The notes below the pieces were generated by a model that searched no databases, had not been told where the DNA came from, and worked only from the letters and a program-made list of their open reading frames with translations. From the IMG/VR virus record IMGVR_UViG_2563366802_000009: a stretch of 8,613 bases of DNA. One strand, given 5' to 3'. Below, one piece after another: positions 1,440 through 7,790 of this stretch. Every line of letters starts with the position of its first letter. Positions within the stretch are counted from its first letter, which is position 1. This stretch comes from a virus. Lineage: Duplodnaviria > Heunggongvirae > Uroviricota > Caudoviricetes. A program made the position numbers and the translations under genes.

Positions 1440-1468
1440 GTATCAGCTGAATTTTATAACCCATATAC

Positions 1469-1494
1469 GGGCGCCAGAAATGGCGCCTTTTTTA
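1469..1494 (+). terminator. Rho-independent terminator-like hairpin directly upstream of lom
   Basis: GGCGCCA-GAAA-TGGCGCC stem-loop (1470..1487) followed by TTTTTTATT. Functional only on the plus strand. It sits 30 bp from the IS end. Confidence 0.5.
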
Positions 1495-1517
1495 TTGCAG
1501 AAAAGCGAGAGGTAATT

Positions 1518-2117
1518 ATGCGTAAAGTTTGTGCAGCCATTTTGTCCGCAGCCATCTGTCTGGCCGTATCCGGTGCGCCTGCATGGGCGTCTGAGCAGCA
1601 GGCCACACTGAGCGCAGGGTATCTTCATGCCCGTACGAACGCTCCCGGCAGCGAAAATCTGAACGGGATTAACGTGAAATACCGTTATGAATTTACGGAC
1701 ACGCTGGGGCTGGTGACGTCATTCAGTTATGCCAATGCCAAAGATGAGCAAAAAACGCATTACAGCGATACCCGCTGGCATGAAGATTCAGTGCGTAACC
1801 GCTGGTTCAGCATGATGGCGGGGCCATCTGTACGCGTGAATGAATGGTTCAGTGCTTATGCGATGGCAGGTGTGGCTTACAGCCGTGTTTCGACGTTCTC
1901 CGGGGATTATCTCCGCGTAACTGACAACAAGGGGAAAACGCACGATGTGCTGACCGGAAGTGATGACGATCGCCACAGCAACACGTCTCTGGCGTGGGGA
2001 GCTAGCGTGCAGTTTAACCCGACCGAATCCGTGGCCATTGATATTGCTTATGAAGGCTCCGGCAGTGGCGACTGGCGCACTGACGGTTTCATCGTGGGTG
2101 TCGGTTATAAATTCTGA
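1518..2117 (+). CDS. lom: Lom outer-membrane protein (Ail/Lom/PagC/OmpX family beta-barrel), a lambdoid moron
   Basis: 199 aa with a signal peptide (MRKVCAAILSAAICLAVSGAPAWA) and C-terminal ...YEGSGSGDWRTDGFIVGVGYKF, near-identical to phage lambda Lom as recalled. GAGAGG Shine-Dalgarno 5 nt upstream of the ATG. Confidence 0.9.
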   Translation: MRKVCAAILSAAICLAVSGAPAWASEQQATLSAGYLHARTNAPGSENLNGINVKYRYEFTDTLGLVTSFSYANAKDEQKTHYSDTRWHEDSVRNRWFSMMAGPSVRVNEWFSAYAMAGVAYSRVSTFSGDYLRVTDNKGKTHDVLTGSDDDRHSNTSLAWGASVQFNPTESVAIDIAYEGSGSGDWRTDGFIVGVGYKF

Positions 2118-2142
2118 TTAGCCAGGTAACACAGTGTTATGA

Positions 2143-2170
2143 CAGCCCGCCGGTTCAGGCGGGCTTTTTT
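2143..2170 (+). terminator. Rho-independent terminator downstream of lom
   Basis: AGCCCGCC-GGTTCA-GGCGGGCT hairpin followed by TTTTTT, 26 bp after the lom stop and 12 bp before the stf start. Confidence 0.6.
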
Positions 2171-2181
2171 GTGGAGTGGAT

Positions 2182-4554
2182 ATGGCAGCAGTAAAAATCT
2201 CAGGTGTGCTGAAAGATGGTGCGGGAAAACCAATACAGAACTGCACTATTCAACTGAAGGCAAAGCGTAACAGCACCACGGTACTGGTGAACACGGTGGC
2301 CTCTGAAAATCCGGATGAAGCCGGGCGTTACAGCATGGATGTTGAGTATGGCCAGTACAGCGTCATCCTGCTGGTTGAAGGTTTTCCGCCTTCACATGCC
2401 GGGACCATTACCGTCTATGAAGGTTCCAGACCAGGTACGCTGAATGATTTTCTTGGTGCCATGACGGAGGATGATGCCCGTCCGGAGGCACTGCGCCGTT
2501 TTGAACTGATGGTGGAAGAAGCAGCACGCAACGCTGAAGCCGCCTCTCAGAGCGCAGCGGCGGCAAAGAAATCCGAAACTGCAGCGGCATCATCGAAGAA
2601 CGCGGCGAAAACCTCAGAAACGAATGCAGCTAATAGTGCACAGGCGGCAGCGACCTCACAGACTGCATCAGCAAACTCCGCGACAGCAGCCAAAAAATCA
2701 GAAACCAACGCGAAAAACAGCGAGACAGCCGCAAAGACGAGCGAAACCAACGCAAAGTCCAGCCAGACGGCAGCGAAAACCAGCGAAACGAATGCCAAAG
2801 CCAGTGAAACTGCGGCAAAAAACAGCCAGGTTGCAGCAGCCCAAAGCGAGAGCGCGGCAGCCGGTTCTGCGACTTCAGCAGCTGGATCAGCAACTGCTGC
2901 GGCTAACAGCCAGAAAGCTGCGAAGACGAGTGAAACTAACGCAAAGTCCAGCCAGACGGCAGCGAAGACCAGCGAAACGAATGCCAAAGCCAGCGAAACT
3001 GCGGCGAAAAACAGCCAGGATGCAGCAGCCCAAAGCGAGAGTGCCGCAGCTGGTTCTGCAAGTGCGGCGGCTTCTTCTGCCACTGCATCAGCCAACAGTC
3101 AAAAAGCAGCAAAAACCAGTGAAACCAACACAAAGGCGAGCGAGACTGCGGCGACTAACTCGGCGAAAGCATCCGCTGCAAGCCAGATGGCTGCAAAAGC
3201 AAGTGAAGACGCAGCCAGAGAGTATGCAAGCCAGGCAGCAGAGCCGTATAAATATGTCTTACAGCCACTGCCTGATGTGTGGATACCGTTTAATGACTCG
3301 ATGGATATGATTACAGGATTTGGCCCGGGATATAAAAAAATAACAGTGCGCGATGATGTGGTCACTATACCATCCGACAAAATTGTCCCGTTTTCCCGCG
3401 CGAGTTCCGCGACCTATATCAATAAGTCCGGCGCTCTTACCATTGCAGAAATTAATGAGCCACGTTTTGAAAAAGAAGGGCTGTTAATTGAAGGGCAGAG
3501 AACAAATTACTTCACAAACTCAAACGCTCCGGAATTGTGGAATAAAAATCCAGGCCTGAAGATAAGCGAGACAAAAACCGATTCCAGGGGTTTTAAATAT
3601 GCAACGTTTACCCCAGAAAAATATTTAGATAGTTCTGGCTCATATGGAATTATATCAGGGGCAGCAGCAAATAAGATAGCGGTAGTCAAAAATGATGCAG
3701 TTACAATATCCTTTAGAGCAAAAGGGGATAATGTAAGATTTGCGGCTAGATTTGATAAAGGGGATTCGCCAGTTGCTGTAGCTGCCATTTTTATTGATAG
3801 CGCCACACTAGATACATTCACGTCTGGAGCAGATGCGTCTAATATTGCTGTGAAAAATGTTGTTCGTGACGGTGAGTGGGTTGCTGTAGAGGCTGTTTAT
3901 AAAGTAACAGACGACTCTACATATATTAACGGCGCCATTCTGATGTCAAACAAACTGGGTGCTAATTTTGATAAGACTAGTTTTATGGATGTAACCACCC
4001 CTCAAATAGAGCTAGGTTCTTGCTTATCATCATTTATTGTCACACCAGGTGTTCCTGCGACAAGGGCGAGTGATATGGTTATTTTTTCAACCAGAAATAA
4101 CATAAGTTCTGTCCCTTTAAGCTGTCTTGTTGAAATACATAAAAATTGGGACTCTACGCCAAATCAGTCCCCACGAATTTTAACCACTATTGGCGTGGCG
4201 ACTAATGATGAACAACTGGTATTTGCTTTCAGGACGCCTACAAGTCCGGATGTAGAACCTTTACCTTATGTTCAGTTTGGAGTGAGATCTGCATATCTTA
4301 GTCCATTTGTGAAGGCCGGGCGCAAAATGATTGCTGGTTTTGTCTGTAATAGCTCGACTGAATTTCGTTGCAGTTGTAATAGTTACCTGTCACCTGTTCA
4401 GACTTCGTCATGGAAGAATACCGGAGCTGCACATGAAATACGTATTGGGGGAACTTCTGCTGGAGGAGAACGTCACTTGTTTGGTCACGTTCGTAACCTG
4501 AGAATATGGCATAAAGAATTAACTGATGCGCAAATGGGGGAGAGTATTAAATGA
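2182..4554 (+). CDS. stf: Side tail fibre protein (Stf-like), mosaic: lambda-like N-terminus, repeat shaft, divergent low-GC C-terminal module
   Basis: N-terminus MAAVKISGVLKDGAGKPIQNCTIQLKAKRNSTTVLVNTVASENPDEAGRYSMDVEYGQYSVILLVEGFPPSHAGTITVYEGSRPGTLNDFLGAMTEDDARPEALRR matches lambda Stf from memory. Ala/Ser/Thr/Lys-rich 14-residue repeats follow (KTSETNAKSSQTAA...). The C-terminal ~520 aa is AT-rich and ends ...GHVRNLRIWHKELTDAQMGE, which resembles the C-terminal strand motif of concanavalin-A-like/LamG jelly-roll domains (inference). Start placed at ATG 2182 (GGAG 5 nt upstream) rather than the track's GTG at 2176. Confidence 0.85.
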   Translation: MAAVKISGVLKDGAGKPIQNCTIQLKAKRNSTTVLVNTVASENPDEAGRYSMDVEYGQYSVILLVEGFPPSHAGTITVYEGSRPGTLNDFLGAMTEDDARPEALRRFELMVEEAARNAEAASQSAAAAKKSETAAASSKNAAKTSETNAANSAQAAATSQTASANSATAAKKSETNAKNSETAAKTSETNAKSSQTAAKTSETNAKASETAAKNSQVAAAQSESAAAGSATSAAGSATAAANSQKAAKTSETNAKSSQTAAKTSETNAKASETAAKNSQDAAAQSESAAAGSASAAASSATASANSQKAAKTSETNTKASETAATNSAKASAASQMAAKASEDAAREYASQAAEPYKYVLQPLPDVWIPFNDSMDMITGFGPGYKKITVRDDVVTIPSDKIVPFSRASSATYINKSGALTIAEINEPRFEKEGLLIEGQRTNYFTNSNAPELWNKNPGLKISETKTDSRGFKYATFTPEKYLDSSGSYGIISGAAANKIAVVKNDAVTISFRAKGDNVRFAARFDKGDSPVAVAAIFIDSATLDTFTSGADASNIAVKNVVRDGEWVAVEAVYKVTDDSTYINGAILMSNKLGANFDKTSFMDVTTPQIELGSCLSSFIVTPGVPATRASDMVIFSTRNNISSVPLSCLVEIHKNWDSTPNQSPRILTTIGVATNDEQLVFAFRTPTSPDVEPLPYVQFGVRSAYLSPFVKAGRKMIAGFVCNSSTEFRCSCNSYLSPVQTSSWKNTGAAHEIRIGGTSAGGERHLFGHVRNLRIWHKELTDAQMGESIK
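2731..3059 (+). repeat. Two ~140 bp direct repeats (2731..2870 and 2920..3059) with a 189 bp period inside the stf shaft region
   Basis: By eye the copies differ at about 10 of 140 positions. The 189 bp offset is 63 codons, so both are in frame, each encoding ...KTSETNAKSSQTAAKTSETNAKASETAAKNSQ(V/D)AAAQSESAAAGSA. Confidence 0.8.
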
Positions 4555-4832
4555 AAGATTTAACACTCAAATTTGCAGACAGGGCCGACTTTTCGGCCTT
4601 TATGGAGAGCATTGGCTATTATGATGACGAGTCGATGCAGGATGATATTCTTATTGACGTGATAGGTAATGTGTACAAAGAAACCGGAGAACTGACTGAA
4701 GATGGCGAACCGGTATGTGTTAAGGAAGACGGATATTTTGTAAACGTGCGCATCATTAATGATGCAAAAAAATCGTCAATATTTGATGAATACGCGGTTG
4801 TAGTTGAACATCAACTTCGTGGCTGGATGTGA
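4551..4832 (+). CDS. Hypothetical small acidic protein (93 aa), translationally coupled to stf
   Basis: Start ATG overlaps the stf stop (ATGA at 4551..4554), with GGGGGAG upstream. About 21 Asp/Glu versus 9 Lys/Arg, net charge roughly -12. AT-rich like the stf 3' half. No family recognised. Confidence 0.55.
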   Translation: MKDLTLKFADRADFSAFMESIGYYDDESMQDDILIDVIGNVYKETGELTEDGEPVCVKEDGYFVNVRIINDAKKSSIFDEYAVVVEHQLRGWM

Positions 4833-4841
4833 GGGAGACAA

Positions 4842-5546
4842 ATGGCTACATCGACAGTAATTCCGGGAGACATCACCACGCTGAAGGGAGATGTCAGTAA
4901 AGCGAAGGAAGATATTTCCTCAATTAACGGTAAAGTGTCAATGCTTCAGACTGATATGACCAGTGCAAAGCAGGATATCAGCTCCAGATACACAAAAACT
5001 GAAGTTGATAATAAGCTGAAAAACAAAGTAGAAGTGAACGATCTGGAAAGTGGTCGTTATGGCGGAGATTTTTATCCACTGACAGGTCGTGAAGCGTTTT
5101 ATTTATGGGGATTGGGCACAACTACAGCGGCGGCAAATCTTTATCTTAATCCTGACCCTGCAATTTCGTCTGTGCTGCGGTCAACATCGTCTATCCGCTA
5201 TAAACATTCAGTAGAGACGATAGATTCAGAGCACGCCGATCTCATTTTCAGGATGCGCCCTGTATGGTACAGGTCGCAATGCGAAAATGACAGGCGTGAC
5301 TGGGGATTCTACGGATTGATTGCCGAGGAAGTAGGAGAAATTGCCCCTCAGTTTGTACACTGGCGACCAGCTAACGAGAATGATGCTCCTGAAGCTATTT
5401 CCAGCAATGGACTTGTTGCCGAAGGTGTAATGTACGAATGTCTGGTTGTTCCACTGATTCACCATATCCAGAAACTGACTGAAAGAGTTGATGAACTTGA
5501 GTCAGAATTAAAGTTGTTATTAACTTCCCGAAGCGATATTAGATAA
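4842..5546 (+). CDS. Small tail-fibre-like protein (234 aa) with a C-terminal peptidase S74-like intramolecular chaperone domain
   Basis: GAGGGAG Shine-Dalgarno 6 nt upstream. N-terminus carries two ~20-residue repeats (LKGDVSKAKEDISSINGKVS / LQTDMTSAKQDISSRYTKTE). The C-terminal half matches the S74 chaperone consensus as recalled: SSIRYK (Ser...Lys at i and i+5), LIFRMRPVWYR, GFYGLIAEEVGEIAPQFV, then YECLVVPLIHHIQKLTERVDELESEL. Confidence 0.7.
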   Translation: MATSTVIPGDITTLKGDVSKAKEDISSINGKVSMLQTDMTSAKQDISSRYTKTEVDNKLKNKVEVNDLESGRYGGDFYPLTGREAFYLWGLGTTTAAANLYLNPDPAISSVLRSTSSIRYKHSVETIDSEHADLIFRMRPVWYRSQCENDRRDWGFYGLIAEEVGEIAPQFVHWRPANENDAPEAISSNGLVAEGVMYECLVVPLIHHIQKLTERVDELESELKLLLTSRSDIR

Positions 5547-5556
5547 AGGAGGAGTA

Positions 5557-5850
5557 ATGGATATAACACCTTTTCTTCATGCGCTTTGTGCTGTGGCTGC
5601 GCAGACACTGGTTGGTCTTTTTACCGGAAACTGGGCTTATGGGGCGATAGCTGGTTGTACGTTCTTCATTGCGCGTGAACACACCCAGGCAGAATATCGC
5701 TGGATTGAAATGTTCGGGCATGGCAAGCGGATTAACATGCCGTGGTGGGGCGGTTTTGATCCGCGTGTTTGGGATGTGGCAAGCCTGATGGATTTTGCTG
5801 TGCCGGTGGTGGCGTGTCTGCTGATCTGGCTGTTGGTTAATCGTGGGTGA
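5557..5850 (+). CDS. Hypothetical small membrane protein (97 aa, 2-3 predicted transmembrane segments)
   Basis: Strong Shine-Dalgarno (AAGGAGGAG) 2-4 nt upstream of the ATG. Hydrophobic stretches at residues ~3-39 and ~71-94 flank a Trp/Gly/Arg-rich loop (RWIEMFGHGKRINMPWWGGFDPRVW). More GC-rich than the two preceding genes. No family recognised. Confidence 0.55.
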   Translation: MDITPFLHALCAVAAQTLVGLFTGNWAYGAIAGCTFFIAREHTQAEYRWIEMFGHGKRINMPWWGGFDPRVWDVASLMDFAVPVVACLLIWLLVNRG

Positions 5851-5860
5851 AAAAAGGTGA

Positions 5861-5980
5861 GCTGTATATGCAACGGAGGAAGAAACCCCGTTGCTGGAAG
5901 CCAGGAAAAAGTATCGGGTGTTGCTGAACCGTGTTGATACGTCAACTGCACAGGATATTGAATGGCCAGCACTGCCGTAG
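5861..5980 (+). pseudogene. tfa: 3' remnant (~40 codons) of a tail fibre assembly gene tfa; no start codon, 5' part missing
   Basis: Frame open 5861..5977 encodes [39 protein letters not shown], matching the conserved C-terminus of lambda-type Tfa (...[31 protein letters not shown]..., recalled). An in-frame TGA lies at 5858..5860. Confidence 0.7.
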
Positions 5981-6077
5981 GGTAAAACATATAAATTCTA
6001 TAATTAGATGTATCTTTCCATTTACGGCAAGGAAGGGGGCTTGGAAGACGTAAAGCATCTCACACCGAGATTATTTT

Positions 6078-6668
6078 TTATATGTCAGGTGTCTGAAGTT
6101 TTGCTTTGGCTCTTAAAATGGTTTGCCGCGAGGTTTTGAATTCCCGGGCAATGGCACTTATACTTACACCTGACTTAATCCGTTCGAATACCACCTGTTT
6201 CTGTTCTTCATTTAACACAGGTGGTCGACCAAAACGTTTCCCTGCGCCCCGGGCTCTTACTATCCCGGAATGAGTGCGTTCAAGTAAAAGGTCTCGTTCA
6301 AATTCAGCGACTGCTGAAATTACTTGCATCATCATTTTTCCTGTTGGACTGGTCAGGTCAATGCCCCCCAATGCTAAGCAATGCACTCTGATACCTGTTT
6401 CGGTCAGTTGTTCCACTGTTTTCCTGATATCCATTGCATTACAACCAAGGCGATCCAATTTTGTCACAATCAATTGATCACCACATTTCAGGCGAGCAAG
6501 CAACCGGTTAAAACCAGGACGCTCACTGGTTGCTGCTGAGCCGCTAATGTGTTCTTCGATTATTTGCTGAGGTTTGATTTTAAAACCTGCACTTTCGATT
6601 TCCCGGCGTTGATTTTCGGTGGTCTGATCCAGCGTTGATATCCGACAGTAAGCAAAAATTCGAGACAT
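6078..6668 (-). CDS. pinR: Serine recombinase (resolvase/invertase family), positional equivalent of Rac PinR
   Basis: 196 aa; N-terminus [20 protein letters not shown] carries the catalytic-serine motif of small serine recombinases, and the C-terminal region reads as a helix-turn-helix ([23 protein letters not shown]). Convergent with the tail-fibre operon, as pin is in Rac/Qin/e14 (recalled). Confidence 0.85.
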
Positions 6669-6984
6669 AGTGAGACTCTATACGAAATTGGTGTTCATAT
6701 CATAATGCATCTCAGAAAATAATTTTGATTATTTTTGTGCATATTTGTATGTACACGTTCGAAAATAAACGAATGCGTATGCAACCCCGTAATTTTGGTG
6801 AGACCCAAAATCGATTTTGTGAAAAATGGCTTTAACTCGGTTTGTTTTTCGAGTTCCGGGCGGACTCAAGGAAGAAGAATAGTGTTGCGTGTTATTTTAA
6901 CCAGATTTCAAGTTGTTTGGTCGTGGAAAAGTGGAGCAAAATGTTGTTAAAGTGGAAAAATGATAAAAAAGTAAGTTTATTATA

Positions 6985-7450: not shown

Positions 7451-7790
7451 TCTTGGGTGTTCTTAAAGTTCGTAGATAAACATTGTCGTTTCAGGTATAC
7501 AGGAATGCTAACAGGTGGCAGCAAAAATCAGGCGGTTTATGGCGCAAGCTGAAGCGGCAACTGCAAACTATCTTATGCAGAGACTCTACACGGATTGGGT
7601 TTAAAAGTATACATAGATAACAGTTTTTATCTGAAGAAGAAAAATATCAAGGTGATATAGCCTATATGCCTATGATGCGGAGGAATGAATGTGATGGGAG
7701 TGATGTATCTGAATAGTTGAAAAACCGCAGTCACGTCGTATGCAAGAACGTGCTGCGGTTGGTTTGACTTTGATTGAGACGTTTTGGAAT

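Follow-up and report, generated by a model that had tools for sequence, protein, structure and literature searches.

A lectin-like distal module in the side tail fibre of a Rac-type lambdoid prophage, shared with virulent coliphages

Why does the side tail fibre gene of an Escherichia coli prophage change composition partway along its length, and what does the part beyond the break encode? We addressed this question in an 8,613-nucleotide stretch of DNA (IMG/VR record IMGVR_UViG_2563366802_000009; the whole stretch is called the window here), which represents the right-hand end of an E. coli lambdoid prophage of the Rac type. It is through their side tail fibres that lambdoid phages first make contact with the cell envelope, and engineers swap these fibres to retarget lambda-based delivery particles. 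The gene, stf, occupies 2176..4554 on the plus strand in the list of open reading frames (ORFs), encoding 792 amino acids from a GTG at 2176, though its RefSeq relatives begin at the ATG at 2182. An earlier note, made from the letters alone, had described stf as a mosaic in which a lambda-like 5' third gives way to a foreign, laminin G (LamG)-like tip that brought the downstream genes with it. We consider it probable that the sequence beyond the break is the distal half of a modular side tail fibre whose tip and Tfa chaperone were replaced by a shared lectin-like unit. This is real but ordinary tail-fibre shuffling with a widespread, annotated module, and it adds one more case of such modules moving between temperate and virulent coliphages rather than a new principle.

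The compositional break itself is real. GC content is 0.546 over 2176-3229 and 0.420 over 3230-4554, and the maximum-likelihood change point in stf falls at 3247 (support interval 3217-3292, from 0.55 to 0.42). The log-likelihood ratio there is 21.5, whereas none of 300 codon shuffles exceeded 7.8, which rules out a uniform GC content across the gene. The break, at about 3241, is carried by codon position 2, where GC falls from 0.60 to 0.45, and because this coincides with the end of the Ala/Ser/Thr/Glu-rich fibre shaft (second-position GC 0.686), amino-acid content accounts for most of it. What bears on origin is the synonymous-site signal, and GC at third codon positions (GC3) breaks later, at 3589 (interval 3421-3622, from 0.48 to 0.28; log-likelihood ratio 16.5 against a shuffle maximum of 10.5). 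That position agrees with the edges of recombination at the DNA level: other E. coli prophage stf alleles are 84-95% identical up to 3321-3545 and diverged after it, and the isolated lambda-like phage Lambda_2G7b diverges after 3510. The position given for the break, 3230-3300, is therefore right as the protein boundary between shaft and neck, but the synonymous-site and recombination boundary lies about 100-300 nt beyond it. The module has a GC content of 0.40-0.44 and a GC3 of 0.27-0.37 in the window, in Lambda_2G7b and in T5-like and T1-like phages, and values of 0.54 and 0.59 in the GC-richer Dhillonvirus KarlBarth; this composition fits a recent stay of the allele in the AT-rich virulent phage pool, though it is not proof of one.

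Ahead of the break, the fibre begins with a virion-attachment domain (Pfam phage_tail_N, PF08400; 225.5 bits against a cut-off of 26.6) at residues 5-134 (2188..2577, plus strand). Residues 5-125 are 92% identical to K-12 StfR, and lambda orf-401 aligns over residues 5-331 at 60% overall, with the first ~125 residues near-identical. The description of a lambda-like 5' third holds for residues 5-125, but residues 126-350 resemble lambda only through low-complexity SETNAK-type repeats. These repeats make up an Ala/Ser/Thr/Glu-rich shaft with 21/42-nt periodicity (2551..3219, plus strand; repeat families D1-D3), which is similar in composition to the shafts of lambda orf-401 and of the T5_ev219 and tunzivis fibres and contains a 189-nt tandem duplication (2660-2848 and 2849-3037, copies 81% identical). 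The corresponding shaft in strain 203740 differs by a 21-nt length change, so the number of repeat copies is evidently labile. Lambda Stf/Tfa and K-12 Rac StfR/TfaR thus share with the window the PF08400 domain, the same kind of repeat shaft and the same genomic place, after J and lom and before pinR.

The C-terminal ~440 residues, in contrast, are unrelated to the lambda/Rac tip. Residues ~352-792 did not align significantly with StfR, lambda orf-401 or lambda orf-314, as the earlier note had anticipated, and no gp37-like tip with a cognate Tfa gene was found in the window, where tfa is a stub. At the DNA level, homology to K-12 Rac (and to lambda) ends at 2534, and homology to K-12 Rac restarts at 5869, in the last tfa codons, so 2535-5868 represents an alternative allele of the stfR-tfaR segment. 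Its right-hand edge is the 3' remnant of tfa (5861..5980, plus strand; the last ~37-39 codons), the translation of which matches the TfaR C-terminus and the RefSeq equivalent of which is named 'tail fiber assembly protein, missing N-terminus'.

What replaces the lambda/Rac tip starts with a conserved neck that joins the shaft to the lectin-like domains, at residues 363-448 (3262..3519, plus strand; PLPDVWIPFNDS...RFE..GLLIEGQRTNY). Mean identity among about 35-36 homologues is 0.71 over residues 363-436 (entropy 0.66 bits), and residues 429-448 form the most conserved 20-residue bin (identity 0.85). The neck leads into a first beta-sandwich at residues 437-631 (3484..4068, plus strand), a gene transfer agent (GTA) head-spike-fibre-type domain that varies between alleles. 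This domain spans positions 1-181 of the 182 in NCBIfam profile NF048003 (GTA_spike_fiber), scoring 56.6 bits with the full protein and 59.2 bits with the C-terminal part against a cut-off of 36, and phmmer matches Stf to Rcc01080 of the Rhodobacter capsulatus gene transfer agent (RcGTA; 6tb9_F3) with an E value of 5.8e-4. A second beta-sandwich, LamG/concanavalin A (ConA)-like, follows at residues ~640-792 (4093..4551, plus strand), with a variable body and a conserved last ~25 residues that include GHVRNLRIWHKELTDAQMGE (4483-4542), within the best Laminin_G_3 stretch (nt 4390-4533). Several close homologues carry a precomputed PF13385 (Laminin_G_3) match, and some are named LamG domain-containing by NCBI.

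Structure prediction points to the same architecture. An AlphaFold2 model of the distal part of Stf, built from 36 sequences, has a mean predicted local distance difference test score (pLDDT) of 77.5, rising above 85 over most of both sandwiches and lying mostly at 85-96 in the first; it contains two consecutive all-beta domains with the two-sheet, jelly-roll form of a beta-sandwich. Foldseek searches with this model returned tandem galectins, tandem CBM22 modules and many viral 'ConA-like' proteins. The fibre ends in two tandem ConA-like sandwiches, not in LamG alone: the earlier reading of a ConA/LamG-type end was correct in motif and fold, but two lectin-like domains stand where it saw one. 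Few parts of the fibre vary as much as the sandwich bodies (entropy 1.6-2.0 bits, 1.6 bits in the first domain; 30-50% identity).

The fibre gene runs directly into a cassette of small genes. The start of orf93 (4551..4832, plus strand; phrog_1361), which encodes a small acidic protein, overlaps the stf stop codon in an ATGA at 4551-4554, which suggests translational coupling between the two, and in 181 phage records an orf93 homologue comes immediately after the fibre gene. Annotated coordinates give the same overlap in T5_ev219 and IrisVonRoten (positions 6314-6317 and 7740-7743 of those loci). The four-base overlap is thus shared with T5-like phages although the proteins are only 35-65% identical. 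Next in the cassette is orf234 (4842..5546, plus strand), a candidate second fibre component that opens with the conserved N-terminal motif MATSTVIPGDITTLKGD, continues through a heptad-like stretch and a short tip, and closes with an S74 chaperone at its C-terminus. The S74 intramolecular chaperone domain (PF13884) covers residues 116-172 (nt 5187-5357) at 27.3 bits against a cut-off of 22; S116, R119 and K121 are invariant in an alignment with the tunzivis and T5_ev219 proteins, and Ser116 and Lys121 show the five-residue spacing of the S74 Ser-Lys dyad. In the N-terminal part, residues 14-45 have weak, sub-threshold Pfam matches to the LPP leucine zipper and similar coiled-coil families, and residues 7-55 align weakly with the P22 tail needle gp26. 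The protein also matches phrog_3299, phrog_454 and phrog_1699, which are tail-fibre C-termini. PADLOC found no match for orf93 or orf234.

Synteny across phages bears out the proposal that the swap brought the downstream cassette along. In all five phages examined (T5_ev219, tunzivis, KarlBarth, IrisVonRoten and Lambda_2G7b), the fibre gene is followed by a gene for a protein of ~85-93 amino acids and then by a second protein that begins with M-[AV]-T-x-T-[VN]-I-P-x-D-I-x-x-L-K. This second protein ends in S74 in all of them but KarlBarth, in which the N-terminal motif is on a separate 98-aa ORF followed by a 196-aa ORF. Its length is 234 aa in the window, ~224 in tunzivis, 345 in Lambda_2G7b and 573-574 in T5_ev219 and IrisVonRoten.

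Comparison with Lambda_2G7b (Nesevirus) revealed that the locus is a clean block mosaic. This phage has the order lom, stf (791 aa), an orf93 homologue (92%), a second fibre protein, an orf97 homologue (95%) and tfa fragments, near which a methyltransferase is inserted. The two loci are 92% identical from lom to the neck (1442-3510), diverged over both lectin bodies (3511-4469), 90% identical over the LamG end, orf93 and the first ~15 codons of orf234 (4470-4885), diverged over the body of orf234 (4886-5555) and 94% identical over orf97 and the tfa stub (5556-5967). The lectin bodies and the bodies of the second protein are therefore different alleles in the two phages. The conservation profile of the wider family agrees, with a conserved neck and last ~25 residues and variable sandwich bodies. 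A second comparison, with strain 203740, found the same cassette in a prophage that occupies the lambda attachment site, on the bioA side. Not one nucleotide differs between the two over 2918-4167 (1250 nt), whereas the flanks differ by 1-10%; this points to a recent recombination tract between prophages at different sites. The end of the shaft, the neck and the first lectin domain all fall within the identical tract. We considered and rejected positive selection in the module: all five of the differences from 203740 are nonsynonymous, but this is not significant (~0.27 by chance), and the recent recombination tract explains it better.

We detected the module in 218 phage records, mostly of Escherichia (171) and Salmonella (17) phages. 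These include T5-like phages (T5_ev219 and JLBYU40, 65% identity), Drexlerviridae (tunzivis, orkinos and JK16), Dhillonvirus and lambda-like phages. An exhaustive search of 1.84 billion cluster representatives found 1348 relatives with E values of 1e-3 or below, 308 of them at 1e-10 or below, and many of the representatives at 50% clustering share just the neck with Stf. Among 5426 complete E. coli genomes, 1054 (~19%) match the shaft-neck stretch 2900-3600, and 71 complete genomes carry at least 80% of 2176-5850, with all 20 of the matches listed being 97.7-99.4% identical. The module is thus foreign in being unrelated to the lambda/Rac tip, but it is not rare, as it is drawn from a common coliphage pool. 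Records labelled as Campylobacter and Listeria phages, several of them unannotated, also carry the C-terminal module with an orf93 homologue (37-38% identity); these look like mislabelled or contaminating coliphage sequences.

The closest known parallel is the virulent phage IrisVonRoten (Tequintavirus; Bas32, BASEL), in which Gp22, Gp23 and Gp24 are the counterparts of Stf, orf93 and orf234, in the same gene order and with the same ATGA overlap. The alignment of Gp22 with Stf begins in the shaft and extends through to the final residue (39% over 745 aa, E 1.8e-133). Gp23 shares 38% identity with orf93 (E 7.6e-24), and Gp24 has the same N-terminal motif as orf234 and an S74 chaperone end. A published AlphaFold-Multimer model casts Gp22 as a long proximal fibre; a galectin-like domain juts out from its C-terminus and is put forward as a further receptor-binding domain, and Gp24 forms a T-shaped distal fibre mounted on Gp22 (PMC11990801). 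The two systems differ in the attachment domain, which is T5-type in IrisVonRoten and lambda/Rac-type in the window, and in the distal protein, which is a 574-aa, T-shaped protein with two receptor-binding domains in the former and a 234-aa minimal form in the latter; the locus in the window belongs to a prophage, and orf97 is added in the lambdoid version. LtfA and LtfB of the T5-like phages DT57C and DT571/2 likewise make up a lateral fibre of two proteins, the second held on through the first, with S74-type chaperones present (PMC4728585, PMC10713586), but LtfA has its own C-terminal S74 chaperone (8hqz_d), whereas Pfam finds no S74 domain in Stf. For siphoviruses of these groups, the prevailing view is that lateral fibres engage O-antigen as an initial receptor, in a reversible manner (PMC8594841).

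The first sandwich has a more distant relative of studied function. Residues 44-276 of the RcGTA head spike fibre Rcc01080 (GhsB; PDB 6TB9) are homologous to Stf residues ~405-636, and this fibre has been shown experimentally to bind capsular polysaccharide (PMC10218006). The sequence relationship is distant, Rcc01080 sits on the capsid vertex rather than the tail, and no LamG domain was detected by sequence after the matching region of this 325-aa protein.

Taken together, the prophage fibre has kept the lambda/Rac-type N-terminal attachment domain and repeat shaft and has exchanged a canonical gp37-like tip and Tfa chaperone for the neck, the two sandwiches, the coupled 93-aa protein and a small S74 fibre protein, as a unit drawn from a gene pool common to lambda-like, T1-like, T5-like and Dhillonvirus coliphages. 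Recombination swaps this unit at conserved joints, namely the neck, a block with the last LamG strands, orf93 and the opening ~15 codons of the second fibre gene, and a block of orf97 and the tfa stub. Trimeric Stf would serve as the proximal fibre, probably as part of a multi-component fibre, and by homology with the RcGTA head spike fibre, the only relative characterised by experiment, its lectin-like lobes may bind surface polysaccharide (O-antigen, capsule or lipopolysaccharide core) reversibly. The product of orf234 may dock on Stf by its conserved N-terminal motif, trimerise with the aid of its C-terminal chaperone and then shed the chaperone at Ser116, adding a second, independently swappable specificity element, and orf93 could be an adaptor or assembly factor. 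Tfa would be dispensable in such a fibre, which could account for its reduction to a stub; we take this fibre class to need two downstream genes rather than Tfa. The earlier note's idea of a swapped tip is thus sound as a replacement, but the module probably does not hold the tip position; most likely a distal protein encoded by its own gene docks there. A changed receptor specificity, also suggested there, is a reasonable prediction.

Several observations weigh against this interpretation. Laminin_G_3 is sub-threshold in Stf (26.0-26.1 bits against a gathering threshold of 27.6; E 1e-5), and a Pfam scan with full-length Stf did not report it. The AlphaFold2 model is of a monomer, and its first 56 residues, covering the shaft end and the neck, are of low confidence; the model of orf93 is unusable (pLDDT 44, from a shallow alignment of 82-97% identical sequences), and a profile search for diverse relatives of orf93 had only near-identical E. 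coli proteins among the matches listed. After cleavage, the mature form of orf234 would have a predicted length of only ~115 residues, and one group has annotated its homologue in KarlJaspers as a 'putative lateral tail fiber chaperone'. We found no binding or adsorption data for this allele or for any enterobacterial member of the family. The attachment of the second protein is suggested by synteny, by the N-terminal motif and by a published prediction for a 39%-identical relative. Finally, an IS66-family element lies at the position of gpJ in this prophage, so the fibre may never be assembled in this strain.

Could the lectin module instead be a structural docking platform only, with host specificity residing entirely in the second protein, in orf234 and its longer allelic forms? 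We think this unlikely. It would suit the single conserved block at 4470-4885, which joins the LamG end, orf93 and the start of orf234 amid diverged segments, the high variability of the second-protein body (234, 345, 573/574 or 98+196 aa) and the published placement of a T-shaped receptor-binding fibre on the proximal fibre (PMC11990801). A platform would be expected to be conserved, however, and the sandwich bodies are highly variable, with 3511-4469 diverged between lambdoid loci that are otherwise 90-94% identical. The best fold matches of these bodies are carbohydrate-binding modules and lectins, and the closest experimentally studied relative of the first domain binds capsule (PMC10218006).

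An explanation of equally low probability in our view is that orf234, and perhaps orf93, acts as a chaperone in trans that replaces Tfa and is absent from the virion, leaving the lectin module as the only tip. S74 domains serve as chaperones in folding and trimerisation, only a stub of tfa is left, little of orf234 would remain after the predicted self-cleavage, the KarlJaspers annotation names this very function, and the ATGA overlap of stf and orf93 would suit a co-translational helper. Yet the S74 chaperones of endosialidases, T5 pb1 and relatives act in cis, on their own polypeptide. The N-terminal motif of orf234, moreover, heads long receptor-binding proteins (573/574 aa in T5_ev219 and IrisVonRoten, 345 aa in Lambda_2G7b), which argues for a structural attachment motif, though for the short form a chaperone role stays a minor possibility. 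Where orf234 matches phrog families, it does so with the C-terminal ends of long tail fibre proteins.

It is far less probable that stf is a decaying relic in a defective prophage and that the composition break has no present function. The IS66 element abuts lom where gpJ should be, tfa is a stub, and Rac-type prophages are frequently cryptic, as the K-12 annotation records; but all four cassette ORFs are intact, the near-identical copies in complete genomes include some with complete tail gene sets, and isolated phages that form plaques have the same architecture. Purifying selection acts on the module and on the cassette genes: the ratio of nonsynonymous to synonymous substitution rates is 0.13-0.29 when the module is compared with phage homologues and 0.13-0.36 when the cassette genes are compared with those of another E. 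coli prophage. The view that the ConA-like domains form a glucanase- or lyase-type depolymerase cutting O-antigen or capsule is just as improbable, since although the ConA-like superfamily contains glycoside hydrolases and many viral Foldseek matches are labelled 'Concanavalin A-like lectin/glucanases superfamily', Pfam and NCBIfam found no hydrolase, lyase or other catalytic family in the distal part of Stf.

Returning to the replacement of tip and Tfa by a shared lectin-like unit, we tentatively raise a more specific version of it, which we regard as possible rather than likely: a Tfa-independent, three-gene, branched side fibre with two independently swappable glycan specificities, one from the tandem lectin domains of Stf and one from a self-cleaving mini-fibre with its own gene, in which the universally linked, translationally coupled ~93-aa protein represents an undescribed class of adaptor or assembly factor joining both. 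For engineering, the locus offers natural swap joints at about nt 3320-3545, at 4470-4885 and from 5556 onward; the paper from Eligo on engineering lambda Stf makes no mention of this fibre class.

The remaining member of the cassette, orf97 (5557..5850, plus strand; phrog_1443, of unknown function), encodes a small hydrophobic protein that is 95% identical to its Lambda_2G7b counterpart. In T5_ev219, tunzivis and IrisVonRoten the second fibre gene has no orf97-like ORF after it, and among the loci examined it belongs only to lambdoid versions of the cassette. It had no Pfam, NCBIfam or PADLOC match and may be a moron or an exclusion-type membrane protein. Its GC content is 0.52, against 0.40-0.44 in the adjoining cassette genes.

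The gene order of the window is IS66, lom, stf, the three small ORFs, the tfa stub, pinR, a ydfK/ynaE-type gene and uspF. Among complete genomes the best match is strain ET210 (99.4% identity over 2176-5850), in which the locus has the same neighbours (pinR, ydfK, ynaM, uspF and ompN) and stf is named 'prophage tail fiber N-terminal domain-containing protein' in RefSeq. Gene stf has the position expected in a lambdoid tail operon, after J and lom, except that here the IS66 element replaces J; the order J, lom, stf is intact in the near-identical loci of ET210 and 203740. Directly preceding stf is lom (1518-2117, plus strand), and upstream of it the IS66-family element occupies 1-1358 on the minus strand (region 1-1440), with TnpA at 954-1358, TnpB at 610-957 and the N-terminus of TnpC from ~590, continuing past the left end of the window. 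The element ends within ~160 nt upstream of lom, at the place of gpJ in near-identical prophages, and the tail operon of this copy is probably interrupted by it.

On the other side, the fibre cassette adjoins an intact serine invertase gene, pinR (6078-6668, minus strand). An invertible fibre segment driven by pinR was considered and rejected: inverted repeats in 2000-6800 reach at most 14-17 nt at 82-88% identity, the consensus crossover core AAACCNNGGTTT had no match with at most one mismatch, and nothing near pinR looks invertible. An Rfam scan of the window found no family match, and a promoter and terminator scan of 2000-6200 found nothing above shuffled sequences. The sole terminator-like hairpin in that region, a strong one, lies at 2144-2165, between lom and the start of stf; its stem of 8 pairs includes 7 G-C pairs and a run of T comes after it.

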